Of a DNA stretch of 64,000 nucleotides, positions 13,119 to 28,148 are shown in pieces. The stretch is from Candidatus Latescibacterota bacterium (GTDB taxonomy: Bacteria > Krumholzibacteriota > Krumholzibacteriia > WVZY01). A model generated the notes under the pieces. It made no database searches. It had not been told where the DNA came from and saw nothing but the letters and a program-made list of their open reading frames with translations. The translations under genes and the position numbers were made by a program. Where the stretch lies: contig CAWBQK010000002.1 in assembly GCA_963791045.1 (NCBI GenBank), positions 1-64,000 on the forward strand, written 5' to 3'. Position 1 is the first letter of the stretch, and the number at the start of each line of letters is the position of its first letter.

Positions 13119-16100
13119 ATGATACGACCGGCATACACATCTTCGTACGCACCGCTGTGGTGCAAGTCGAACTATTCCTTTTTGGAAGGCGCGAGTCATC
13201 CGGAGGAACTGGTGGAGGAAGCGGCGCGCCTGGGGCTGCGCTCGATCGCGATAACAGACCGCGACGGTGTGTACGGTATTGTGCGCGCGCATGTGAAGGC
13301 GAAGGAGTGCGGCGTTCATCTGATCATCGGCTCGGAAGATCACACTCGACGACCAGTCGACAATCATCCTGCTGGCAATGAACGCAAAGGGCTACGCGAA
13401 TCTGTGCGAGCTGATTTCAGACGGGCGGCTTCGTCACCCAAAAGGCGAATCGTCGGTGACATGGAAGGAACTCTGCGCAAGAGCCGAAGGGCTGATCGCA
13501 TTATGGGGCGGTGAGCGCAGTCTAATCGCGGGCCCCACGCGATCCGCTGTTCATCGCAAAAGAACTTAAAGGAAGCGTTCGGCGACCGGCTGTACGCAGC
13601 TGATCGCACGCCACCGCCGCGCGGAAGAAGCAAAGGAAGAACACCGCGTGCGCATCCGCGCAATACGGTACAAGCTCCCAACAGTCGCCGCAACGGAAGT
13701 GCTCTACCACACACACGAACGCCGCGATCTGCAGGACGTGCTGACGTGCATCAAGCACGGGGTGACGCTTTCAACGGCGGGCCGCGTGACAAAACCCAAC
13801 GCCGAGCACGCGCTAAAACCCCCGTTCGCCTTTCGCATGCTCTATGAAGACGACCCGCTTACTGGTCGCGCAAACGGAAGAGATCGCAGCACGGTGCACG
13901 TTTTCACTCGACGAGATCCGTTACCGCTACCCATCGGAAAAGCTTCCCGACGGCTCGACCTCATCGGACTATCTCCGAACACTGACATACGATGGCGCCA
14001 AAGAGCGCTACCCGCGAAGCAACGCACCCGAACGGGATTCCACCCAACGTAAAAGCCCAATTGGAAAAAGAACTCGGTGTGATCGGCGACCTGGAGTACG
14101 ACGGGTATTTCTTGACGATGTGGGAGATCGTGCAGTTCTGCCGCCGCGAACACATCCTGTGCCAGGGCCGCGGGTCGGCGGCGAACTCGGCGGTGTGCTA
14201 CTGCCTGGGGATCACCGCGGTCGACCCGGTGCAGATGGATCTTCTTTTCGAGCGCTTCATGTCGAAGGAACGCGCCGAGCCGCCCGACATCGATCTCGAC
14301 ATCGAGCACAACCGCCGCGAAGAGGTGATCCAGTACGTCTACGCGAAGTACGGCCGGACGCACGCGGCGATGGCGGCGAACGTGGTCCGCTACCGCGCCC
14401 GCTCGGCGGTGCGCGAGGTGGGCAAGGTCCTCGAAGTCCCCGACACGACACTCGACCGCGTCGCCAAACTCCTGTCGCACTACGACGACATCACGCGCGA
14501 CTCGCTCGACCGCGCGGGGTTCGACCCCGACAGCCACGTCCACCAGCACCTCGCGCGGCTCGCCGCCGAGATCCAGGACTTTCCGCGGCACCTCTCGATC
14601 CACCCGGGAGGCTTCCTCCTCGGCCACAAACCGGTCCGCCAGCTCGTCCCGATCGAGAACGCGACGATGCCCGGCCGCACGGTGATCCAGTGGGACAAGG
14701 AGGACCTCGAGTCGCTCGGGCTTTTCAAGGTCGACCTCCTGGGCCTGGGGATGCTCACGGTGCTCAACCGCTCGTTCGATCTGATCGAAACGCACTACGG
14801 CAAACGCATCACGATGGCCGACGTCCCCGACGGCGACGAACCGACATTCGAGATGATCCGCCGCGCCGACACGGTCGGCATATTTCAGATCGAGAGCCGC
14901 GCGCAGATGGCGATGCTCCCGCGCCTCAGCCCCAAAAACTATTACGACCTCGTGATCGAGGTGAGCATCGTCCGCCCGGGCCCGATCACCGGCGGGATGG
15001 TTCACCCGTACCTTCGCCGGCGCAATGGCGAAGAAGAAATCACCTACCCGCACCCGTCTCTCGAACCGGTGTTGAAGAAAACACTCGGGCGTCCCGCTTT
15101 TTCAGGAGCAGGTGATGAAGCTTGCCGTGATCGCCGCCGACTACACACCGGGCGAGGCCGATCAGCTGCGGCGCGACATGGCGGCGTGGCGGCGCACGGG
15201 GCGTCTCGAACGCCACCGCGAACGCCTGATCATGCGGATGCAGGCGAAGGGAATTGAGAAGGAGTTCGCGGAGCGGGTGTTCGAGCAGATCCGGGGGTTT
15301 GGCGATTACGGTTTTCCCGAGAGTCACGCGGCGAGCTTTGCGTACATCGCGTATGTGTCCGCGTGGCTCAAATGCCATTACCCGGAGGTGTTTGTGTGCG
15401 CGCTCTTGAACGCGCAGCCGATGGGGTTTTATTCGCCGGCGACGCTCATCGACGATGCGAAGCGGCACAAGCTCACGGTTCTGCCGGTGGATGTGGCGCG
15501 GAGCCGGTGGGATTGTACGCTTGGAGGTGTGCGGGGAGCGCGCGGCGGGGAATGGGAATGGCAGTGTCCCGTAATGGCGGCGCGCCCATCGAACGGCAAT
15601 GGCAATGGTGGCGGTTCGTCGAACGGCCATGCGCAGCGCATCGCGGCGGCAATCGCGGCAACGTGGCGGCAACGGCAACAACGGGCACAAGCCACACGCA
15701 CCCTCACGCCAACCCCTCGCCGTTCGTGTGGGCCTCCGCTACGTCCGCGGTCTCCACGAAGAGTCGGCCGCAGGATCGAGGCCGCGCAACACAACCGCGC
15801 GTTCACATCGATTGATGATTTCATCACGCGAACACAACTAGAAGACGGCACACTCACGCGGCTCGCCGAGGCCGGCGCCTTCGAGCGATTCAAAAAAGAG
15901 CGACGCAGCGCGTTGTGGCACATCCGCGGGTTCGACCGGACGACCGCGCCGCGGCTAAAACTAAAAGACAACGAACCGCGCGTTCGCTTCGAAGACTTGA
16001 CCCAATTCGAAACCATCGGGTGGGACTACGACATGACCGGGCACAGCACGCGCGGACATCCGCTCTCGCCCTTTCGTGAGGAGCTACGCGCGATGGGCCT

Positions 16101-16419
16101 TCCCGACGCAAAGACCGTCACCGCGATGCGCAACAAACAAAGAGTGAGCTACGCGGGGATGGTGATCAACCGCCAGCGGCCAGGGACGGCGAAGGGCGTG
16201 GTGTTTATGACGCTCGAAGACGAGACGGGATTCGTCAATATAGTTATATGGAAGAACGTATTCAAAAAACATATGGTGATCGCCAAGACCTCATCTTTCC
16301 TCGGTGTAACGGGGACTTTACAGTCCGACGGCGGTGTGGTGCACCTCGTTGCGCAATCTCTATGGGACCCAACAACTAAAGAGCGTCCGCGGCGCCGGCG
16401 CAGCCGCGACTTTCATTGA
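13119..16419 (+). CDS. dnaE2: Error-prone DNA polymerase DnaE2/ImuC, frameshifted
   Basis: [63 protein letters not shown]-terminal SRDFH signature. Confidence 0.95.
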
Positions 16420-16510
16420 TGCGATGTGTAAACCCACACCGACACCTGTAAAGTAAATTGGACACTTTTAACAAAACTGTGGAAAAAATAAGATTTCTTT
16501 AACTATAGCC

Positions 16511-16539
16511 TTGACACTCCGTCAATTAACTGGTAAACA
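16511..16539 (+). promoter_or_regulatory. Putative sigma70 promoter
   Basis: TTGACA-17 nt-TAAACA with TGn extension and AT-rich upstream sequence. Confidence 0.6.
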
Positions 16540-16544
16540 AACTA

Positions 16545-16854
16545 ATGTCAGGGGGAACCGAAGCGCAATCGTTCTTCGCGAACCTTGGCAGGGTGGCCGT
16601 ACATTTACCGGTCAGGAACACCCCCCGTTAACAACCGGTATCCGCTGCCAAAAGTACGGTCGCGACGGAGCTGATCTCACGTGCTGCACTGCTCCGTTTG
16701 GCACTTCTACAGACCGGCCACTGGGTTCCGGTTACCGTCCCAGGCGGTTTCCTCGGTTCGAGGTGGTTAGGATCGTCAACGCTGTAGCTGAGTGCTGCCC
16801 AACTGCTGTGAACGGGTGAGATGCACGCCATGTGTGTCTTGCCCGTTTTCTTTT
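16545..16854 (+). ncRNA. Candidate structured ncRNA (~310 nt), family not recognised
   Basis: Between promoter and terminator; multiple complementary segments with G-U pairs favouring the + strand; no convincing ORF. Confidence 0.6.
16811..16854 (+). terminator. Intrinsic terminator
   Basis: AACGGGTGAGATGCAC-GCCAT-GTGTGTCTTGCCCGTT then TTCTTTT; four G-U pairs work only on the + strand. Confidence 0.8.
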
Positions 16855-16874
16855 GAGTCAAGAATAACGAAGAT

Positions 16875-17921
16875 CTATTTCAAGAAGACGAGCTTTTTGA
16901 CCTCTGTAAAACTCCCCGCCTGGATACGGTAAAAATACACGCCGCTCGCCACCAGATTTCCGGAGGAATCCATTCCATCCCATGTGACATGGTGAATTCC
17001 CGACGGTTTGTCGATGTCTTCGAGCGTGCGGACCAGCCGGCCGGTCGCATCATAGACGGCCAGGAATACGGCCTCGTCTTGTGGGAGTCTGTATTCGATG
17101 ACGGTTGTCGGGTTGAACGGGTTGGGGACATTCTGGCCGAGATGGTAAGATGCATCATGTCCCGGTGTGGTGTCGTCGTATATGCCGGTGCTTGTGCTGA
17201 TTGTCGGCGGTGTTTCACTGTCCGAGATCACGAGCCGGTAGGATGTGATCTCATCGTTCAAGTCTCCAAGACTCAGAATCTCATCGTTATCCGTTAACAC
17301 GGTGTCGGGAATCCCGCCGGAATTCCAAGCCTCGTCTATGTAGAAATACCAGTAGCAGTGGGCTTTGGGCATGGTGCCCTCAACCCCAACCTGAATAGCA
17401 GAGATCTCGTCGTTCCAGTGTCCGTCGAGTTCGCGCAACTCCATAACGACCTCATTCGAATTGCCATGCTTATACAGGTGCATAGCGTGGACTTCACCCT
17501 CATAATTGGTGTCTTCGCAGAATCCGAAATAGGTTCTTTCTTCGTCCGCCGGACAACTGAACTTCAATGAAGAAACTATGTCGCTGTTCGCCCCCAGGCT
17601 GGCTTTCTTCCCATCGCCGACACCAAGATTGGTGTTACAATCGAGATCATTGTATATCAACCAATGGGCGGGATAGTTGTCCCACGTATAAAGAGAGGAG
17701 ATTCTATCGCCCCACCAATCGCTTACAATCTCCACTGCGACTTCGTAGTCACCATTGTCCACATAAACGTCGTACCGGATTTCGTCCCCAAAACCATCGC
17801 CCTCATCATCCCAAGTAACCCTGAGCCAGCAATACGGTCCATCTCCCACGCAAGCAGCCCAGGCAACGTGAAAGCACCCCAACAGCACGGCAACCAGGAT
17901 CAACACGCCTAGCTGCTTCAT
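16875..17921 (-). CDS. Secreted protein with beta/gamma-crystallin-like motifs and C-terminal FlgD-Ig domain
   Basis: Signal peptide; DRISSL, DIVSSL, NDEISAI, NDEITSY; QNVPNPFNPTT...WDG...VASGVYFYRI; RBS AAGGAGG. Confidence 0.8.
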   Translation of the reverse strand: MKQLGVLILVAVLLGCFHVAWAACVGDGPYCWLRVTWDDEGDGFGDEIRYDVYVDNGDYEVAVEIVSDWWGDRISSLYTWDNYPAHWLIYNDLDCNTNLGVGDGKKASLGANSDIVSSLKFSCPADEERTYFGFCEDTNYEGEVHAMHLYKHGNSNEVVMELRELDGHWNDEISAIQVGVEGTMPKAHCYWYFYIDEAWNSGGIPDTVLTDNDEILSLGDLNDEITSYRLVISDSETPPTISTSTGIYDDTTPGHDASYHLGQNVPNPFNPTTVIEYRLPQDEAVFLAVYDATGRLVRTLEDIDKPSGIHHVTWDGMDSSGNLVASGVYFYRIQAGSFTEVKKLVFLK

Positions 17922-18264
17922 CGTTTACCTCCCTTTAAACAAGGCACCACAACGCTTGACAAAACTGTACTCGCGGCGAATCCCGGGCACAGCCGGTCCG
18001 GTTATTTCGATATAGCTCTCCAGGAGAATGCTGCAGGTAGGCGAGCGGTGAATGGACGGTATCCCCCAACAAACAGGGCACAATCTTATCAGAAGGAAGG
18101 TTGAGTGTCACCTGAAAAATACACACTGGACAGGTGGTCACTATTCAAAGAAGCGCCATTCGACGACGACCGCTGGTTGCCGGACAAACCCGCCACCTTC
18201 GGGCCTGCTTATTGCACCTGCTATAATGAGGAGAGTGCCGAAGTCCAATCGAGGAGATCCGCGT

Positions 18265-20124
18265 ATGAGAAGGTCGCTCGCTATCCTGTTGCTTCTTATG
18301 GTTTCGGGGACATCCCTGGCGGGAGCCAGCGGCCTTCGGGTTGGAATCTACTCCAGCATGGGCGCTGAGCCCGACAAAACCCTCGCGTTGTACCGCGCCG
18401 TCGCCTCCGCGGGACACGCACCCATGGCCATCAACCAGGCCGATGTCTTGAACGGCCGCCTCACCACCACCAATTTCGACGTATTTGTTTTGCCGGCGGG
18501 CCAGGACGGGAAGCGCTGCTGCGCCGACCACTACTCGGACAACGGAGCCGCCCTCGGGAGCATTCCGGCGAAGGACGCCATCCGCGCCTACCTGAACAAC
18601 GGAGGCGGAATGGTCGCCATTGAAGCAGGCGCTTATTTCGCGGCAAAGAACGGCGGCACACTGGACGTCTACGACGCCGACTATGAAAACATCACCGACG
18701 ACATCGGTAAGAAAACCATCACCATCACCGACGCCACGTTCGGCGCCGGCACCCTCGAGTCATGGCACTCCTACGGCGGCGGCTATTTCGGGACCACACC
18801 GTCGGCCACGGTCGTGGCGATGAACGCTTCGGGCGAACCGGTCATCGTTCGCGACACATACGGCGCCGGTCGCATTATCTTGACCAGCATGGATCTCGAA
18901 CTGCGCGGCGACAGCGAACTGGACTGGACTATCTGGGACAACTGGGCCATGGGCTCCCACACAAACTCCGCCGGCAACTGGGAGCTGCTGGGCCGGATGA
19001 TCGGCTGGGCCTACAACGGCGATGCGTCCGCCCCCATGATTTCACCGGCGCCAAATCCCTCCGGCGCTCGCGTGGCAATCATAAGCACACGCACGAACGA
19101 CGGAGGCGCGTGGCCGGGCTTACTTCCCGCCGTCGCACGATCGGTGGAATACGCGGGGCACATTCCGCTTTCCATCCGCATCGAAGACGTGAATAACGGC
19201 GCGCTCACCAACACCGAGTTTGACATTGTGCTTTTTCCCGGCGGTTATTCGTACGGGTATAAAACCGGCCTCGACGGTCACGAACAAAAAATCCGGGACT
19301 TTATTATGGCGGGAGGATCCTACTACGGTATTTGCGCGGGCGGGTTTTACGCCGCCGGCACGCTGTGGTGGGAGGGCAAGTCCTATCCCTATCCGCTCGA
19401 CATCTACAACGGCGAACCAACGGGCCCGCTCGATGACATTGCCACGTGGCCCAACTACGCCCTGACACCAACCGACGTTGTCGACCCGTTGCTGGGCGGA
19501 CCGTATACACTCATGCAAACCTACTACGGCGGCGCCCACTTTCCCATCCCGTCGGGCGAGCCGTACACACCGGTCGTCACCTATTCGTACAACGGCCAGT
19601 ACTCGGGCACGAACAATATCGTGCGCTACATGTATGGCGAGGGTCATGTCGCCCTCACCGGCACGCACCCGGAGTGCCGCGCCGGCACCACAGAGGACTG
19701 GCTCTACTGGGATGACTTCGACGCCAACAACCAACCGCTCACGAACCCCGACAACCCGTGGATCTTCGTCGACAAGTTGTTCGACGACTGGCTCGCGCTC
19801 GCGACGGCTTCGGGAATCAGCGACGCGCCCTCGGTGCGAAACACGCCCCTGATGTCGCGAGCAGCCCCGAACCCGTTTTCAAACCGCGTGCGGCTGCGAG
19901 TCACGCTATCGGAATCACGGGCCATTCGACTGACGATCCACGACGTCAAGGGTCGCCTTGTCGCCGGCCTCTCAAACGGACCCGTCGGCGCCGGTGACCA
20001 CGATTTCGTATGGAGCGGCTTTGACGGCGCGGGACAGCGGGTCCCGAGCGGGGTGTATTTCGTTCGGCTCGAATCGGCCGGATTCGTGGAGTCCCAGAAA
20101 ATCGTCCTCATCGAACACCGCTAA
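18265..20124 (+). CDS. Secreted protein with two BPL_N/class I glutamine-amidotransferase-like domains and FlgD-Ig domain
   Basis: ATG 18265 after GAGGAG; FVLPAG..AIEAGAY and LFPGG..GICAGGF..HPE; PNPF...SGVYFVRL. Confidence 0.78.
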   Translation: MRRSLAILLLLMVSGTSLAGASGLRVGIYSSMGAEPDKTLALYRAVASAGHAPMAINQADVLNGRLTTTNFDVFVLPAGQDGKRCCADHYSDNGAALGSIPAKDAIRAYLNNGGGMVAIEAGAYFAAKNGGTLDVYDADYENITDDIGKKTITITDATFGAGTLESWHSYGGGYFGTTPSATVVAMNASGEPVIVRDTYGAGRIILTSMDLELRGDSELDWTIWDNWAMGSHTNSAGNWELLGRMIGWAYNGDASAPMISPAPNPSGARVAIISTRTNDGGAWPGLLPAVARSVEYAGHIPLSIRIEDVNNGALTNTEFDIVLFPGGYSYGYKTGLDGHEQKIRDFIMAGGSYYGICAGGFYAAGTLWWEGKSYPYPLDIYNGEPTGPLDDIATWPNYALTPTDVVDPLLGGPYTLMQTYYGGAHFPIPSGEPYTPVVTYSYNGQYSGTNNIVRYMYGEGHVALTGTHPECRAGTTEDWLYWDDFDANNQPLTNPDNPWIFVDKLFDDWLALATASGISDAPSVRNTPLMSRAAPNPFSNRVRLRVTLSESRAIRLTIHDVKGRLVAGLSNGPVGAGDHDFVWSGFDGAGQRVPSGVYFVRLESAGFVESQKIVLIEHR

Positions 20125-20432: not shown

Positions 20433-22316
20433 ATGAGTGGAAATCTGCGTCATCGAAGGCGATGGCTGTATGTCGCAGCGCTCGTCGCCATTTCACTCTG
20501 CATTTACTCCTGCTCCGATGATTCCACCAGCCCACCACCGCCGCCAGAGTCTCCGCTGAACTGCGAATGGACGTGGCAGCGCCCGCTCCCGACCGGGAAT
20601 TCTCTGAACGACGTGTCGTTCGCGAATGCCGACATGGGAACGGCCGTGGGCGATTTCGGCACCATCGTCCGGACGACAGACGGCGGCTCAAACTGGACGA
20701 GTCACGAGAGCGGCACGGTTCAACATCTCTTTGGCGTGTCGTTCGCGGATGCCAACACGGGTACGGCCGTGGGCGCCGAGGGGACGATCCTCAATACAAC
20801 CGACGGCGGAGCGACATGGACGGCGCAGTCGAGCGGCACGATCGCCGACCTCAACGGCGTGTCGTTCGCCGACACAGAACACGGCACCGCCGTGGGGACC
20901 GAAGGCACGATTCTTAGCACAACGGACGGCGGCGCGTCCTGGGTCATCCAGACGAGCGGGACGGACAATGACCTGCGCGGCGTCTCGTTCACGGTCGCCG
21001 ACACGGGAACGGTCGTGGGCGCCGAGGGGACGATCCTCCGAACGACGGACGGCGGCGACACGTGGACGGCCCAGCCGAACGCCGCGGCGAACAACTTTTA
21101 TTCCGTTTGGTTCACCGACACCAACACGGGAACCGCCGTGGCCGCCGGAGTGGTGGGGGCCGCGATATTCCGGACCACAAACGGCGGCGTCGACTGGCAG
21201 AGCCAGACGAGCGGCGCGCAAACCACGCTCAACGATGTGTATTTCACGGATGCCGACACGGGGTTCGCCGTAGGCTTTAACGGGACGGTCGTTCGAACGA
21301 CGAACGGCGGCGTCTCGTGGGAAAGCACCATGGTCACGATGGCTCCCCTCTTCGGGGTCGCATTCACCGATGCGAATACGGGAACGGCGGTCGGCGGAGC
21401 GGGCACCATCTATCAAACAACCGACGGCGGCGACACGTGGACGACCCAGACGGAAGTCTCTCCCCGCCCGTTCTACGGCGTCGATTTCACGGACGCCGCG
21501 ACGGGTACCGCGGTCGGATCCGCGGGAATGATCCTCCGAACGACGGACGGCGGCTCAAACTGGACGACTCAAAACAGCGGGGTCTTTCGTGAGCTGATAG
21601 GCGTGTCATTCGTGGACGCGAATGTTGGAGCGGTTGTGGGCCACAACGGAACAATTCTCCGAACCCACGATGGCGGCGCCACCTGGAGCCCTCAGACCAG
21701 CGGCACCGGACAGAATCTCTTTGGGGTTGCGTTCGTGGACTCGGCGAGAGGGACGGTCGTGGGTGCGGGAGGCACGATTCTCCGCACCGTCAACGGCGGC
21801 AACGAATGGACACCTCAAGCCAGCGTCACGAGCCTCGTGCTCCGTGGAGTGGCGTTCGCCAACGCGGAAAAAGGAATCGCCGTCGGCCCGGGCGGCACGA
21901 TCGTCTCGACGGAGGACGGCGGAGCCACATGGACGCTTCGGGTCAGCGGGACGTCGGTGGACTTGAAGGGGATTTCGTATATCGATGAGGAAGGCCGAAC
22001 CCCTCCGACCGCAACGGCGGTGGGACTGGATGGAACGATCCTCAGGTCGGGGGACAGCGGCGTGACGTGGGAGGCGCAGGCGAGTGGCGTCGACTCCTGG
22101 CTCTTTGGAGTGGATTTCACCGATGTCAACACGGGAACCGTCGTGGGACTCAGCGGCACGATCCTCCGCACAGTCGACGGCGGCGCGACGTGGGTGGCGC
22201 AGACGAGCCGTTCGAGGCATCGTTTTTTAAGCGTGTCGTTCACCGACGCACAGACGGGCACCGTTGTGGGGGATTACGAATCCATTATCCGCACGACCCG
22301 CTGCGGCGCCGACTAG
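20433..22316 (+). CDS. YCF48/BNR-repeat beta-propeller lipoprotein 1
   Basis: Lipobox YSC-SDD, Pro linker, 13 full TDGGxxW Asp-box repeats plus a terminal partial. Confidence 0.88.
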   Translation: MSGNLRHRRRWLYVAALVAISLCIYSCSDDSTSPPPPPESPLNCEWTWQRPLPTGNSLNDVSFANADMGTAVGDFGTIVRTTDGGSNWTSHESGTVQHLFGVSFADANTGTAVGAEGTILNTTDGGATWTAQSSGTIADLNGVSFADTEHGTAVGTEGTILSTTDGGASWVIQTSGTDNDLRGVSFTVADTGTVVGAEGTILRTTDGGDTWTAQPNAAANNFYSVWFTDTNTGTAVAAGVVGAAIFRTTNGGVDWQSQTSGAQTTLNDVYFTDADTGFAVGFNGTVVRTTNGGVSWESTMVTMAPLFGVAFTDANTGTAVGGAGTIYQTTDGGDTWTTQTEVSPRPFYGVDFTDAATGTAVGSAGMILRTTDGGSNWTTQNSGVFRELIGVSFVDANVGAVVGHNGTILRTHDGGATWSPQTSGTGQNLFGVAFVDSARGTVVGAGGTILRTVNGGNEWTPQASVTSLVLRGVAFANAEKGIAVGPGGTIVSTEDGGATWTLRVSGTSVDLKGISYIDEEGRTPPTATAVGLDGTILRSGDSGVTWEAQASGVDSWLFGVDFTDVNTGTVVGLSGTILRTVDGGATWVAQTSRSRHRFLSVSFTDAQTGTVVGDYESIIRTTRCGAD

Positions 22317-22340
22317 AACTCGAAACGAAGGGAAATCTCC

Positions 22341-24221
22341 ATGACCGCCGTTATACGATCCAACTGGAGATGGCTTCGAATCGCCGCTTGTCTCGCAGTC
22401 GCCGCGATCGCACTCGGTATGGGGGGCTGTTCGGACGACCCGGCGGCCCCCGAGCCTTCCCCCGCCGTCCCGCAAAACGGCGAGTGGGTCTGGCAAAACC
22501 CAATTCCGACCGGCCAATCCCTCTTCGGTGTCGCGTTCACCGATGCCCAGACGGGGACGGTGGTGGGCGCGTTCGGCACGATCCTCCGGACCACCGACGG
22601 CGGGGTGACGTGGGACACGCAAACGACCGGGGTCCCTCCGGCGGTCGATCTCAATGCGGTCTCGTTTACGGACGCGGAGACGGGGACGGCGGTGGGCGCG
22701 TTCGGCACGATCATTCGAACAACCGACGGCGGAGCCACGTGGATGAGCCGGGAGACTTCCACCATCGCCAGTCTAAACGGCGTGTCGTTTACCGATACCA
22801 ACACGGGGACAGCCGTGGGAGAGGACGGCACGATCCTCCGGACGACCGATGGCGGCGCAACGTGGGTCAACCAGACGAGCAATACGGGCCGCTGGCTCTA
22901 CGGCGTGTCGTTCACCGATGCCAACACGGGAACGGCCGTCGGGGCGGGCGGCGCCATGCTTAGGACGACGGACGGCGGCGCCACGTGGGTCAACCAGACG
23001 CCCCAGACAAACCATACGCTTCGCGGCGTGTGCTTCACCGACGCGAACACGGGAACGGCCGTCGGGGATTACGGCGTGATCCTCCGAACCACCGACGGCG
23101 GCACCCAGTGGGTCGAGCAAACCAGCGGCGTGGGCACCATGCTCCGGGACGTGTGGTTCAACGACAGTGAAACGGGAGTGATCGTTGGATTCACCAATAC
23201 GATTCTCCGGACGACGGATGGCGGCGCGACCTGGACGACCTGCACGATCGAATCGCCCTCCGAATCGCCAAACTTCATACTGGCCGGCGTGTCATTCGGC
23301 GACGCGAACACAGGGACGGCGGTCGGATGGACGGGCGCGATCTTGCGGACCACCGACGGCGGAGCGTCGTGGGTGTCTCAGACGAGCGGCATGACGGCCC
23401 CGTTGTACGCGGTCTCGTTTGCGGACGCAAGTACGGGGACCACGGTGGGCGACGGCGGTACGATCTTGCGGACCACCAACGGCGGCGCCACCTGGGTGAG
23501 CCAGACGAGCGGCACGAACGTCACCCTTTTTGGCGTCACGTTTACCGATGCGAATACGGGAACCGTCGTGGGTGATGAGGGAACGATCTTACGGACCACC
23601 GACGGTGGCGCGACGTGGGAGAGTCAACGGTCGTTCTCTGATTACCCGCTCTACGGTGTGTCGTTCATTGACGAGAACACGGGAATCGTCGTCGGCCGCG
23701 GCGGAACGATCCTGAAAACCACGGATGGTGGCGCCATCTGGAGGCACATGACGACTTCATCCGGAAGGGTTCGCGCGGTGTCGTTTGGAGACGCCAACAC
23801 CGGCGCCGCCGTGGGAGAGAGCGGTGACATCTACCGAACGACCGACGGTGGAGACACCTGGGAATATCAGGAGAGCGGAACGGAGTACGATCTGCGGGGG
23901 GTATCGTTCGGTTCCGCGAACATCGCAACCGCCGTGGGAATAGGCGGTACGATCCTGAAGACCACCGACGGCGGGGCCACCTGGGTGGCCCAGGAGAGCA
24001 ACGCGACCAACCCGCTCTATGCCGTATCGTTCACCGACGCCAACAACGGAGCGGCCGTGGGCGCGGTCGGTACGATCCTTCGAACGGCGGACGGTGGCGC
24101 GACGTGGTTCAATCAGGCGGGGCCCACTGCAACCCCGCTCTACGGTGTTTCGTTTGTGGACGCCAACACCGGGAGCACCGTGGGCTTCAACGGGGTCATC
24201 CTCCGGACGACGACGCGGTAA
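22341..24221 (+). CDS. YCF48/BNR-repeat beta-propeller lipoprotein 2
   Basis: Lipobox GGC-SDD; ~41-aa repeats. Confidence 0.88.
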   Translation: MTAVIRSNWRWLRIAACLAVAAIALGMGGCSDDPAAPEPSPAVPQNGEWVWQNPIPTGQSLFGVAFTDAQTGTVVGAFGTILRTTDGGVTWDTQTTGVPPAVDLNAVSFTDAETGTAVGAFGTIIRTTDGGATWMSRETSTIASLNGVSFTDTNTGTAVGEDGTILRTTDGGATWVNQTSNTGRWLYGVSFTDANTGTAVGAGGAMLRTTDGGATWVNQTPQTNHTLRGVCFTDANTGTAVGDYGVILRTTDGGTQWVEQTSGVGTMLRDVWFNDSETGVIVGFTNTILRTTDGGATWTTCTIESPSESPNFILAGVSFGDANTGTAVGWTGAILRTTDGGASWVSQTSGMTAPLYAVSFADASTGTTVGDGGTILRTTNGGATWVSQTSGTNVTLFGVTFTDANTGTVVGDEGTILRTTDGGATWESQRSFSDYPLYGVSFIDENTGIVVGRGGTILKTTDGGAIWRHMTTSSGRVRAVSFGDANTGAAVGESGDIYRTTDGGDTWEYQESGTEYDLRGVSFGSANIATAVGIGGTILKTTDGGATWVAQESNATNPLYAVSFTDANNGAAVGAVGTILRTADGGATWFNQAGPTATPLYGVSFVDANTGSTVGFNGVILRTTTR

Positions 24222-24282
24222 GCGAGGTCAGGCGGCAAGCCGTCATTCATAGTGCATGGCCCACTGGTATGCCCCCCCCGGG

Positions 24283-24312
24283 TTGACGCGGACTCCGGCG
24301 CAAGGATAGAAT
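24283..24312 (+). promoter_or_regulatory. Putative internal promoter
   Basis: TTGACG-18-TAGAAT upstream of ATG 24361. Confidence 0.45.
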
Positions 24313-24360
24313 CGACAAAATTGGCTTCCCCGGCCTGATAACCACAGGAAAGGTCTTCTA

Positions 24361-26243
24361 ATGCGCACTTCACACGTACTGTACCTCGCGCTTCTCGCCC
24401 TGACCCTTCAGTTCTTTTCCTGCTCGGATGATCCGACGAGTCCGCCGCCAACCTCCGGCCCCGATCAGACGTGCGACTGGTTCTGGCAAAACCCCCTGCC
24501 GCAGGGCAATTCCCTGAGCGGCGTTTCATTCACCGACGCGAGTACGGGAACCGCGGTGGGAGGCAACGGCAGCATCATGCGCACAACGGACGGCGGCGTC
24601 ACATGGGCGTTTCAAACGAGCGGTACGGACGTCCCGCTCATGGCCGTCGAGTTCACCGATGCCAATACGGGAACGGCCGTTGGATATTTCGGCACGATCC
24701 TGCGCACAACGGATGCCGGCGCCAACTGGGTCAGCCAGGATAGCGGCACGGACAACCACCTCCACGGCGTGACGTTCACCGACGCCGATTCGGGGTATGT
24801 TGTTGGCGCCGCCGGCACGATCCTGCGCACAAAAGACGGCGGGATCACATGGGAAAGCCAGACCATCGCCACGACGGATAATCTCCAGGCTGTGTCATTC
24901 CCGGACGCGATGACGGGAACCGTAGTGGGAGGAAACGGCACGATCCACCGCACAACGGACGGCGGCACAACCTGGGTGCTCCAGCCACCCGGCACGGGCG
25001 GCATGATGGGGTTTAGCGGCGTAACATTTACGGACGCCAACACGGGAACGGTGGTGGGATCGAGCGGGGCGATCCTGCGCACAACCGACGGCGGCGCGAC
25101 GTGGGAGAAACAAACGAGTGAAGCGACATTCATGCTGGCTGACGTTACGTTCACGGACACAAACACAGGATTTGCAGTTGGAATGAATGGCGCCATTGTC
25201 AAAACCACCGACGGCGGGACCACATGGGTGAGTCAGACGAGCGGCACCCTGGCATGGCTTACCAGCGTATCGTTCACGGACGCCAATACGGGAACGATCG
25301 TGGGAACCGTCGGCGAAATCCTGCGGACAACCGATGGCGGAACCACGTGGACGAATCAAACGGCCCGCGTCGTCGACTTCGTCCCCCTCACAAGCGTGTC
25401 ATTCACGGACGCCAACACAGGCATAGCCGTGGGAGAAGCGGGGACAATCCTGCGCACGTTCGACGGCGGAACCACATGGATGGATCAAATGAGCGGCACG
25501 TCCGTCAGCCTCCGCGGCGTATCGTTCACCGACGTGAACACTGGCACGGTTGTAGGGCATAGCGGCACGATCCTGCGCACAACCGACGGCGGAACCACGT
25601 GGGACAAACAAACGAGCGGCACGCCCGTTAACCTCCGCGGCGTATCGTTCACCGACGCCAACACGGGAACGGCGGTGGGTTTGAACGGCACGATCCTGCG
25701 AACGACCGACGGCGGAACCACGTGGGAAAAGCAAACAAGCGGCACGGTCAACACGCTCCGTGGCGTATGCTTCGCGGATGCCAATGCGGGAACGGCGGTG
25801 GGCTTGAACGGTACCGTGCTTCGCACAACCGACGGCGGGGCCACGTGGACGAGCCAACAAGTGGCGTGGTCAACCATCTCAATAGTGTGTCGTTCACGGT
25901 CGCGAGCACGGGCACGGCGGTGGGAGAGGGTGGCACCATCATACGGACGACGGACGGCGGCGCCACGTGGGTGACGCAAGCAAGCGGCCTGCATGAATCG
26001 ATCGCGCTCTACGGCGTGTCGTTCACGGATCCGGAAGGAAGGACGACGGTGGGAATGGTTGGGAAAGCCGTGGGAAGTAATGGTACCATCCTTCGAACGG
26101 TGGACGGCGGGGCGACCTGGGAGATCCTGCCGAGATACGCCAACTACCAGCTCCTGGGTGTATCGTTCCCGACCCAAAGCACGGGCACGGTCGTGGGAGA
26201 TGCCGGCACGATCCTCCGGACGACGACGTGCGGCGCGGACTAA
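24361..26243 (+). CDS. YCF48/BNR-repeat beta-propeller lipoprotein 3 (one frameshift near 25860)
   Basis: FSC-SDD; repeats continue in ORF 25722-26243 ending TTTCGAD. Confidence 0.85.
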
Positions 26244-26309
26244 TTATCGGGCAGGCGCGAGTCGGTAATTTCAAATGAAATTGAACGGGTTCAAAGGAAG
26301 GCCATTTAA

Positions 26310-28148
26310 ATGAGCGGTGCGCTGCGGGTTCGCTGGCGATGGATACACGTTTTTGCGCTTGTGGTGATTGCGCTGCAGATCTGTTCCTGCTCGGATGATC
26401 CAGTGAGCCCGCCCCCCCCACAGAACTGCGATTGGTTCCAGCAGTATCCCTCGCCGACAAACAACTCGCTCTTCGGTGTATGTTTCACGGATGCGAATAC
26501 GGGAACGGCCGTCGGGTCTTTCGGCACGATTATCCGAACGACGGATGGCGGCGCCACATGGCTGAGTCAAACCAGTGGAACCAGCTACAAACTCAGTGGC
26601 ATATCGTTCACAGATGCAAATACGGGAACCGTTGTAGGGGATGGCGGCACCATCTTGCGCACGACCGACGGCGGCGCCACGTGGGTGAGGCAGACGAGCG
26701 GGACGCCCCAGGCGCTGTATGGCGTATCGTTCACGCACGCCGATTCGGGATTTGTGGCCGGAAATGCCGGCACCATCCTGCGAACGACGGATGGCGGCGC
26801 CACGTGGGTGACCCAGACAAGCGGCACCGATGTTCCGCTCTACGGGATTTCGTCTACGGATGCCAATACCGCGACGGCTGCGGGAGATGACAACACCGTC
26901 CTGCGAACGACGGACGGGGGAACTACGTGGGAAGTTCAGAGGAGCGGCGGCGATAACTTTTTCTTCGCCGTAGATTTCACGGACGCGGATGCGGGAACGG
27001 TCGTGGGGTTTGACGGCATCCTCATGCGAACGTCGAACGGCGGCACCAAATGGGTGGGCCAGGCGAGCGGCACGAGACAAATTCTCTCCGGGGTATCGTT
27101 CACGGACGCCCTCACGGGGACGGTCGTGGGATCGAGCGGCACCATTCTCAGGACGACCAACGGCGGGTACAACTGGGAAAAGCAAACAAGCGGCACGGGC
27201 TTTCGACTCTACGATGTGTCGTTCACGGATGCGAATACGGGAACGGCGGTGGGAGCAGAAGGCACGATCTTAAGAACAACGAACGGCGGCGCCACGTGGG
27301 TGACACAAACGAGAGGCTCGACGTACGACTTGAACGGCGTGTCGTTCATCGATGCCAACACGGGAACGGCCGTGGGTGACCGCGGCACGATTATCCGGAC
27401 GGTGGACGGTGGAACCAACTGGGAGAGGCAGGAGTGCGGGGTGACGATCGACCTCTATGGCGTATCGTTCGCCGATGCCAATAACGGGACGGCCGTGGGA
27501 GCGGAAGGCGCGATCCTTCGGACCACCAATGGTGGGGACACCTGGGTGAGCCAAACCAGCTTCACCGACGTGGACCTCTATGGCGTGACGTTCACCGACG
27601 TCAATACAGGTACTGTTGTGGGAAACAACAGCAAGATCCTCAACACGACCGACGGCGGCATGACCTGGAGACACCAGATTGGCGGGGGTTCACTCCGCTC
27701 GGTGTCCTTTGCGGACGCCAGTACGGGGATCGCAGTCGGATTAAGTGGTGCGATTGTCGGAACGGCGGATGGCGGCGCCGTGTGGGAGTGGCAAACGAGC
27801 GGCACTGAGCACGACCTCCGCGGCGTGTCGTTACCTGCTGTCACGACGGGGACGGCCGTGGGAACGTTCGGCACAATCCTGCGAACGATCGATGGCGGCG
27901 CCACATGGGTGAGTCAAACCAGCGGCACGGACCTCCCTCTCTACGCCGTATGTTTCACGGACGCGAATACGGGTACCGCCGTGGGGGCATCCGGCATCAT
28001 CCTGCGGACGACGAACGGTGGGGCCTCATGGGCAAGCCAGGTGAGCGGAACGATTTCTCCGCTTTACGGTGTGTCTTTCACGGATGCTAATACTGGAACC
28101 GCCGTTGGATACCAGGGCGTGATCCTTCGCAAACCCAAGTGCCAATAA
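26310..28148 (+). CDS. YCF48/BNR-repeat beta-propeller lipoprotein 4
   Basis: CSC-SDD; 13 full repeats plus a partial. Confidence 0.88.
   Translation: MSGALRVRWRWIHVFALVVIALQICSCSDDPVSPPPPQNCDWFQQYPSPTNNSLFGVCFTDANTGTAVGSFGTIIRTTDGGATWLSQTSGTSYKLSGISFTDANTGTVVGDGGTILRTTDGGATWVRQTSGTPQALYGVSFTHADSGFVAGNAGTILRTTDGGATWVTQTSGTDVPLYGISSTDANTATAAGDDNTVLRTTDGGTTWEVQRSGGDNFFFAVDFTDADAGTVVGFDGILMRTSNGGTKWVGQASGTRQILSGVSFTDALTGTVVGSSGTILRTTNGGYNWEKQTSGTGFRLYDVSFTDANTGTAVGAEGTILRTTNGGATWVTQTRGSTYDLNGVSFIDANTGTAVGDRGTIIRTVDGGTNWERQECGVTIDLYGVSFADANNGTAVGAEGAILRTTNGGDTWVSQTSFTDVDLYGVTFTDVNTGTVVGNNSKILNTTDGGMTWRHQIGGGSLRSVSFADASTGIAVGLSGAIVGTADGGAVWEWQTSGTEHDLRGVSLPAVTTGTAVGTFGTILRTIDGGATWVSQTSGTDLPLYAVCFTDANTGTAVGASGIILRTTNGGASWASQVSGTISPLYGVSFTDANTGTAVGYQGVILRKPKCQ

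Follow-up and report, generated by a model that had tools for sequence, protein, structure and literature searches.

A probable stand-alone, lineage-restricted non-coding RNA gene in a Latescibacterota bacterium

Lineage-specific non-coding RNAs (ncRNAs) of unknown function are common in bacteria, and several described systems come close to the locus reported here. Trans-encoded small RNAs (sRNAs) form one such group, with about 265-310 nt lying at the long end of the bacterial sRNA size range. 6S RNA and Ms1 RNA, abundant RNAs that bind RNA polymerase and of which the latter is about 300 nt long, form another, and a further set comprises the OLE, raiA and IMES RNAs, orphan ncRNAs that emerged from surveys of GC-rich intergenic regions or metatranscriptomes and that have many members and covariation support. 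For the Latescibacterota, also known as candidate division WS3, no model organism is available in culture; to our knowledge no regulatory RNA has been described in them, and one literature search found none.

Here we describe an intergenic tract in a 64-kb window (the whole stretch of DNA analyzed, 64,000 nucleotides, from an uncultured, sediment-type Latescibacterota bacterium) that is probably a genuine, undescribed, lineage-restricted stand-alone ncRNA. Like trans-encoded bacterial sRNA genes, the tract comes with a sigma-70-type promoter and an intrinsic terminator of its own and is intergenic, non-coding, single-copy and confined to a narrow lineage; a point of difference is that no Hfq gene was found in the genome, which is 81% complete. 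With 6S and Ms1-type RNAs it shares size class, apparent abundance and a stand-alone gene, and the 6S gene of this genome shares the TGGTAAA form of the extended -10. However, the tract does not match the 6S model RF00013, the genome already has a 6S RNA (58.1 bits), and the predicted fold of the tract is a chain of hairpins whereas 6S RNA is a rod with a central bubble. The tract resembles the OLE, raiA and IMES RNAs in being a GC-rich island in an AT-rich spacer and in occurring in environmental RNA libraries, and differs from them in being known from one lineage and one near-identical variant only and in having no match to their Rfam models. In kind, the tract belongs with the lineage-specific ncRNAs of bacteria, and neither Rfam 15 nor a limited literature search holds a description of it.

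The promoter can be read directly from the + strand. Its -35 hexamer, TTGACA (16511-16516), is separated by 17 nt from TAAACA (16534-16539), and the spacer ends in TGg (TG at 16531-16532) to give the extended -10 element TGgTAAACA (16531-16539). Abutting the -35 on its 5' side is an AT-rich spacer with A-tracts (16440-16510, GC 0.30-0.39) that appears UP-element-like. Every motif of the promoter described in the earlier note, made from the letters alone, is in place; the promoter was nevertheless unlisted by our scan because TAAACA lacks the final T, and the absence of this usual final T from the -10 hexamer speaks against the ncRNA reading. Since the promoter had been missed, and since the terminator scan found 1 site against 1.4 +/- 1.2 in shuffles, a result by itself within chance, the promoter form was tested directly. 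The pattern TTGACA-N13-15-TGGTAAA occurs in 15 copies in 36 genomes of the order versus 1 for the reversed control, with only 3 copies in the 3.66-Mb genome, one of them the promoter of the tract. Other copies precede tRNA, cold-shock-like and secreted-protein genes, the last of these with clear Shine-Dalgarno sites; two tRNA-gene promoters of this form likewise lack the final T, and the 6S RNA gene of the genome also carries a TGGTAAA extended -10. The enrichment in the order, together with the genes that the form drives elsewhere, thus identifies it as a strong promoter typical of the lineage. From this sigma-70-type element (TTGACA, 17 nt, TGgTAAACA), + strand transcription would start near 16546, as placed from the position of the -10, and an ATG at 16545 coincides with this predicted start. 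A 15-bp palindrome, TTGAC-N5-GTCAA (16511-16525), spans the -35 hexamer and could be the operator of a dimeric regulator.

An intrinsic terminator lies on the same strand 300 nt 3' of the promoter, with nothing coding in between. As the earlier note had claimed, it is a + strand element, formed by an 18-pair hairpin (16810-16848; ensemble P 0.95) and a U-run that extends the site to 16856; in the terminator scan the stem is followed by TCTTTTGAGT. The T-run is found 3' of the hairpin on the + strand alone. Transcription would end at this site (16810-16856), possibly with subsequent 3' trimming to about 16810. Between promoter and terminator lies the predicted RNA body (16546-16809), a GC-rich stretch that has no coding signal, no Rfam match and a single copy in the genome, where blastn (word 7) and nhmmer matched only the tract itself. 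At the start of this stretch the composition changes, with GC content rising from 0.30-0.39 over 16400-16549 to 0.56-0.61 over 16550-16849. The tract is not a 5' leader, as had been argued before, because the next gene (16875-17921) is convergent, and the terminator closes the unit; a riboswitch or other leader is thereby ruled out, the 3' gene being on the - strand with the terminator intervening.

The tract does not belong to a known RNA family. The Rfam comparison suggested in the earlier note, run here with cmscan against Rfam 15 (4227 models), gave no match at gathering score in the 64-kb window, and a permissive scan of 16350-16950 at E <= 10 gave none inside the tract, its two matches (E 2.4 and 9.3) falling outside it at 16445-16516 and 16401-16414. 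ARAGORN likewise found no tRNA or tmRNA gene in the window. The four RNAs that the earlier note had failed to recognize in the tract are all encoded elsewhere in the genome: RNase P RNA (bacterial type A, RF00010) at C18:178740-179107 with 294.6 bits, tmRNA (RF00023) at C13:4806-5159 with 180.8 bits, 6S RNA (RF00013) at C6:15203-15379 with 58.1 bits, and SRP RNA (RF00169) at C7:60059-60159 with 74.7 bits. None of these models matches within the window, neither Rfam nor ARAGORN reports a tmRNA there, and the hairpin chain predicted for the tract is a further point against 6S RNA. As all four lie on other contigs and score above their cut-offs, the tract is no divergent copy of any of them. A sub-threshold match to the tmRNA model (33.9 bits, model positions 47-315) was observed at G000:C6:6587-6863 on the - strand, apart from the true tmRNA on contig C13.

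Candidate partners and other classes of RNA were considered in the same way. Hfq (PF17209), CsrA (PF02599) and Ro60/TROVE (PF05731) were not found in the 81%-complete genome, by which we rejected, respectively, an Hfq-dependent sRNA, a sponge of the CsrB/RsmZ type and a Y RNA, the last of which also has no Rfam match here. GGA motifs number 4 in 267 nt of the tract, approximately the number estimated for chance. Guide RNAs of mobile elements (omega RNA, bridge RNA, retron ncRNA) were rejected as well: the neighbors are a fragment of DNA polymerase III alpha and sorting-domain proteins, no transposase, reverse-transcriptase, TnpB/IscB or phage gene lies near the tract, and no repeats were found at the borders or termini of the unit. 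The longest matches to the RNA elsewhere in the genome measure 16-20 nt and are at chance level (E >= 1.1).

In the predicted ensemble the RNA would fold as a chain of four hairpins, with helix probabilities of 0.74-0.97, and not as one closed multi-helix junction. H1 (16546-16590) consists of an outer stem (16546-53/16583-90) and an inner stem (16559-63/16574-78), with P 0.88 and 0.97. The domain P2/P3 (16593-16663), in which P2 (16593-602/16654-63; P 0.88) encloses P3 (16606-12/16634-40; P 0.74), has CAGGAACACCCCCC in its apical region and a predicted single strand of 13 nt at 16641-53. P4 (16664-16698) is a hairpin with a 19-nt loop (16664-71/16691-98; P 0.97), and H5 (16700-16796) is a long irregular hairpin composed of 16700-12/16782-96, 16716-22/16762-68 and 16734-39/16743-48 (P 0.90-0.97). 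The complementary segments from which the earlier note had assembled a six-stem model are all present in the sequence (16555/16751, 16593/16654, 16606/16634, 16664/16691, 16711/16745 and 16721/16739), as is a CUGCCAA segment at 16645 that is complementary to either 16585 or 16697 and through which a hypothetical pseudoknot or switch might form; a ribozyme, which the earlier note also considered, is likewise conjectural. The model itself survives by half. Stems 16593/16654, 16606/16634 and 16664/16691 recur in the ensemble (P 0.74-0.97), whereas the closing stem 16555/16751 and the two 3' stems, 16711/16745 and 16721/16739, have P near 0 and compete with H5; forcing the closing stem costs 9.5 kcal/mol, and the full six-stem model reaches -55.0 versus -94.1 kcal/mol for the minimum free energy fold.

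On the + strand the full unit with its terminator folds to -119.7 kcal/mol (z -1.56, with 6 of 100 shuffles as good), better than the - strand, which at -102.4 kcal/mol (z +0.47) is worse than its shuffles. Once the terminator is left out, the core has no advantage over shuffled sequence (16546-16812, z +0.43; 16585-16765, z +0.42). Thus, of the earlier claim that the RNA is structured, the three ensemble stems stand, and the energy of the core, which lies within that of shuffles, adds nothing to it; these predictions weakly support a structured RNA. Seven copies of the tetramer GCUG are present in the RNA (16643-16806), where 0.89 would be expected from the genome background, and four of them lie within 16780-16806, directly before the terminator; the excess has p 4e-5 before correction for 164 tests, and we attach no meaning to it.

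Searches for homologues returned essentially the tract itself, and the want of divergent homologues, and hence of an RNA family, weighs against the ncRNA reading. BLAST of 16500-16860 against 41 genomes of relatives gave only the self-match. A single-sequence covariance model of 16546-16700 (R1) identified no homologue in 36 genomes of the order, the output being the self-match and 3 weak matches (E 0.04-0.86 per genome) whose alignments lack P2/P3, and a model of 16546-16812 (R2) identified none in 151 genomes of the phylum, where it returned itself and 6 short local matches (E 0.02-0.09) in 5 genomes. Plasmid and phage collections held no match to the tract, and an exact 20-mer from the core had 0 matches in genome_contigs, viral_contigs and metagenome_contigs, collections that may omit near-identical records of this genome. 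For synteny, the C-terminus of the neighboring polymerase served as probe, for which metagenome_contigs gave 75 loci, the best with 69% identity, and genome_contigs gave 80 that were kept; the 348-aa neighbor on the other side is useless for this purpose because only its C-terminal sorting domain recurs. Comparison of the RNA by nhmmer and blastn with 106 syntenic and other loci, a set that left out the 80 genome_contigs loci (L122-L201), gave nothing significant, the best match having E 0.04 over 22 nt. In 5 family relatives (L014, L015, L016, L018 and L019) the region downstream of the orthologous polymerase contains other genes and no similar tract.

One near-identical variant is known, and it came to light through an open frame of 102 codons that spans the tract (16511-16819). 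Among 5.8 billion protein clusters, the translated frame has a single relative, a 104-aa ORF with 93% identity on a 520-nt contig, and among 1.84 billion representatives there were only this variant again and a spurious match of 35% identity; shorter forms of the 102-aa frame and a 77-aa ORF on the - strand had no relatives. The variant is seen only as this 104-aa ORF, itself spurious, and 8 nucleotide changes were deduced from its amino-acid differences, silent changes being unseen. Two of these lie just 5' of the -35 (16507 and 16508) and six inside the RNA (16558, 16565, 16634, 16769, 16781 and 16788). G16565A turns a G.U pair of H1 into A-U, A16634G turns a U-A pair of P3 into U.G, A16769G would add a C16715-G pair to H5, and the other three of the six fall in loops or bulges. 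None of the six breaks a predicted pair, an outcome matched by 2.8% of 5000 random sets of the same type, or by 1.5% when the folding energy has also to be kept, in a comparison built on only 6 changes seen at the amino-acid level and on random sets that were not refolded. The change at 16558, on the other hand, breaks the closing stem of the earlier model unless 16756 has changed silently. The visible changes are also unevenly placed, with 1 of 8 in the central 203 nt versus 7 of 8 in the outer 109 nt (binomial p estimated at about 0.004, with boundaries chosen post hoc). This pattern offers modest support for a fold and a core that may be under constraint.

The tract is present in public RNA libraries. 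Of the 31-mers sampled from 16420-16875, 19-50% occur in each of 20 public runs, which come from 11 studies and of which 11 are registered as RNA. Four of these runs, each of a different study and chosen because they hold the stretch, were aligned to 15900-17500 at a likeness of at least 80%, and in each of them one contig, without mismatch and wholly inside 16558-16810, covers the tract. These contigs span 16558-16810 in run X1 (253 nt, depth 2.2; labelled metatranscriptomic but flagged as probably DNA), 16576-16799 in X2 (224 nt, depth 4; RNA), 16586-16806 in X4 (221 nt, depth 22.9; RNA) and 16603-16753 in X10 (151 nt, depth 2; probably DNA). High-identity cover excludes the spacer (16440-16547), the terminator (16818-16871) and the flanking genes, for which the four runs contain only short pieces below 95% identity, on conserved domains; neither these gaps nor the contig ends count as evidence on the extent of the RNA, and no conclusion on habitat or strain is drawn from the other 16 runs (X3, X5-X9 and X11-X20). 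The contigs are unstranded, ends and abundance cannot be read from them, and RNA libraries can hold DNA. As to the check on transcription proposed in the earlier note, the tract is present in RNA-labelled libraries (X2 and X4), in contigs that carry no strand and that are consistent with an abundant discrete transcript but are no proof of one.

Upstream of the tract, a + strand gene that ends at 16419 encodes the C-terminal portion of a second DNA polymerase III alpha, which is DnaE2-like, with finger, HHH_6 and OB domains in its C-terminal ORF. The polymerase gene is split over several frames, with PHP at 13119-13514, NTPase and finger at 13992-15257, and the end of the finger, HHH and OB at 15112-16419, whereas relatives encode the orthologue in one uninterrupted frame of about 1035-1156 aa; within the family, identity to the orthologues is 58-78%. 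Among titled entries of the genome collection, the fragment comes closest to a 'Candidatus Latescibacterota' MAG (68% identity over the best segment). The split reflects either a pseudogene or assembly indels, and the region beside this fragmented gene may be decaying. An intact main dnaE, with a 1171-aa frame, is found on contig C7. Downstream, the convergent gene at 16875-17921 (-) encodes a 348-aa protein with a C-terminal sorting domain of the FlgD-Ig/Por type; it ends 19 nt beyond the terminator of the tract and has no terminator of its own. The sorting domain, seen here at 16875-17921 and 18052-20124, has about 100 copies in the genome and 30-135 per family relative, and the N-terminal 230 residues of the 348-aa protein have no relative in the family.

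This arrangement leaves several explanations other than an ncRNA gene to be weighed. An mRNA for a small protein might be translated from a leaderless 28-codon ORF starting at 16545, from the 102-codon frame or from the 77-codon ORF of the - strand, a reading encouraged by the ATG at the predicted transcript start and by a frame that is open across the whole tract here and, with 104 codons, in the variant as well. Codon usage tells against it. In a log-odds model built from 687 long open frames of the genome, true gene frames score 0.189 +/- 0.085 and off-frames -0.059 +/- 0.174 per codon, and the six frames of the tract, at -0.19 to -0.008, are all non-coding-like, as the earlier note had judged from the lack of a convincing ORF; the 102-codon frame scores -0.114, the 28-codon ORF -0.005 and the 77-codon ORF -0.022. 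The 102-codon frame moreover begins inside the -35, upstream of the predicted transcript start, and chance is estimated to produce an open frame of that length in about one of every 8 tracts of this GC content when all six frames are counted. Of its 102 residues, 7 differ between the near-identical copies, with A>D, R>G and N>K among the changes, and neither it nor the 77-aa ORF matches a Pfam family, the one variant being its sole relative in either protein collection; in the 28-codon ORF the variant has one non-synonymous and one synonymous change, which is uninformative on its conservation. We regard a small-protein mRNA as very improbable. Nearly as improbable is a processed piece of a neighboring transcript, whether - strand RNA from the 3' UTR of the convergent 348-aa gene or RNA that reads through from the polymerase gene. 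Unstranded library contigs and the close approach of the terminator-less 348-aa gene would accommodate such an origin, but the T-run of the hairpin on the + strand alone and the - strand folding worse than shuffles do not, and a lineage-typical promoter lies 12 nt upstream of the start of the longest contig, with no contig among the four runs bridging the tract and either gene.

The recurrence of an identical sequence in soil-, sediment- and seawater-labelled runs of four studies raises the further question of whether a contaminant or spike-in common to many libraries was misassembled into the contig. The four runs hold no variants of the tract at 80-99% identity, and the silence of the three collections probed with the exact 20-mer, incomplete for near-identical records as they may be, would fit as well. 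Nevertheless, the tract is joined seamlessly, with no repeats at its borders, to a promoter typical of the lineage and to a terminator, it has no plasmid or phage match, and the variant, which has at least 8 substitutions and includes the promoter region, represents natural variation and so argues against a spike-in or contaminant; an artefact of this kind is extremely unlikely. A functionless transcribed relic has a better claim, while still unlikely: here the tract would be a decayed gene fragment or spacer beside a broken polymerase gene, with promoter-like and terminator-like sites that arose by chance. The split of the upstream gene over several frames, a core with no excess of folding energy, and the lack of homologues among the 36 genomes searched from the order and the 151 from the phylum all suit a relic. 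Chance is, however, a poor account of a strong lineage-typical promoter with only 3 copies in the genome, of assembly without mismatch from RNA-labelled libraries of separate studies, and of a variant whose visible substitutions avoid breaking predicted pairs and, with one exception among 8, lie outside the central 203 nt.

We therefore consider it fairly likely that the tract is a genuine stand-alone gene for an ncRNA of 265-310 nt, whose transcript would run on the + strand from near 16546 up to the terminator, accumulate in situ and act in trans. In this reading the sequence features, the lack of a coding signal, the standing outside known families and the presence in RNA-labelled libraries are shown by the data, and the strand, ends, fold and action in trans are inferred from them. 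Such an RNA would accumulate sufficiently to be assembled from environmental RNA libraries and would serve as a protein-binding or base-pairing regulatory RNA; as there is no co-oriented gene downstream and no coding signal, action in trans is the most likely mode. A strong promoter and recovery from RNA libraries of several studies make the tract a concrete handle on the RNA biology of the phylum, and should further variants bear out a conserved fold, the tract would found a new RNA family. A bolder proposal, that the Latescibacterota possess a new class of housekeeping-like RNA, abundant and structured, of which the tract is the first to be recognized, strikes us as distinctly doubtful. If true, the tract would be a catalytic or switching RNA, or else the RNA part of an unknown ribonucleoprotein, with relatives in sister genera that have diverged beyond the reach of single-sequence models.

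Two further features were observed in the course of this work. In genomes of a sister family (G020 and G021), the same type of promoter is followed by a similar non-coding stretch, on the - strand from base 55 of locus L213 and on the + strand from base 1501 of locus L214. The L213 stretch is about 150 nt long and ends in a GC hairpin and T-run, and that of L214 is truncated by the end of the locus; neither has an Rfam match at gathering score or evident similarity to the tract, and they may be another undescribed small RNA of the order. Within the window itself, four tandem + strand genes (20433-28148; 627, 626, 537 and 612 aa) all carry BNR/YCF48-like repeats (PSII_BNR, Sortilin-Vps10) and look like a paralogous array of secreted beta-propeller proteins.
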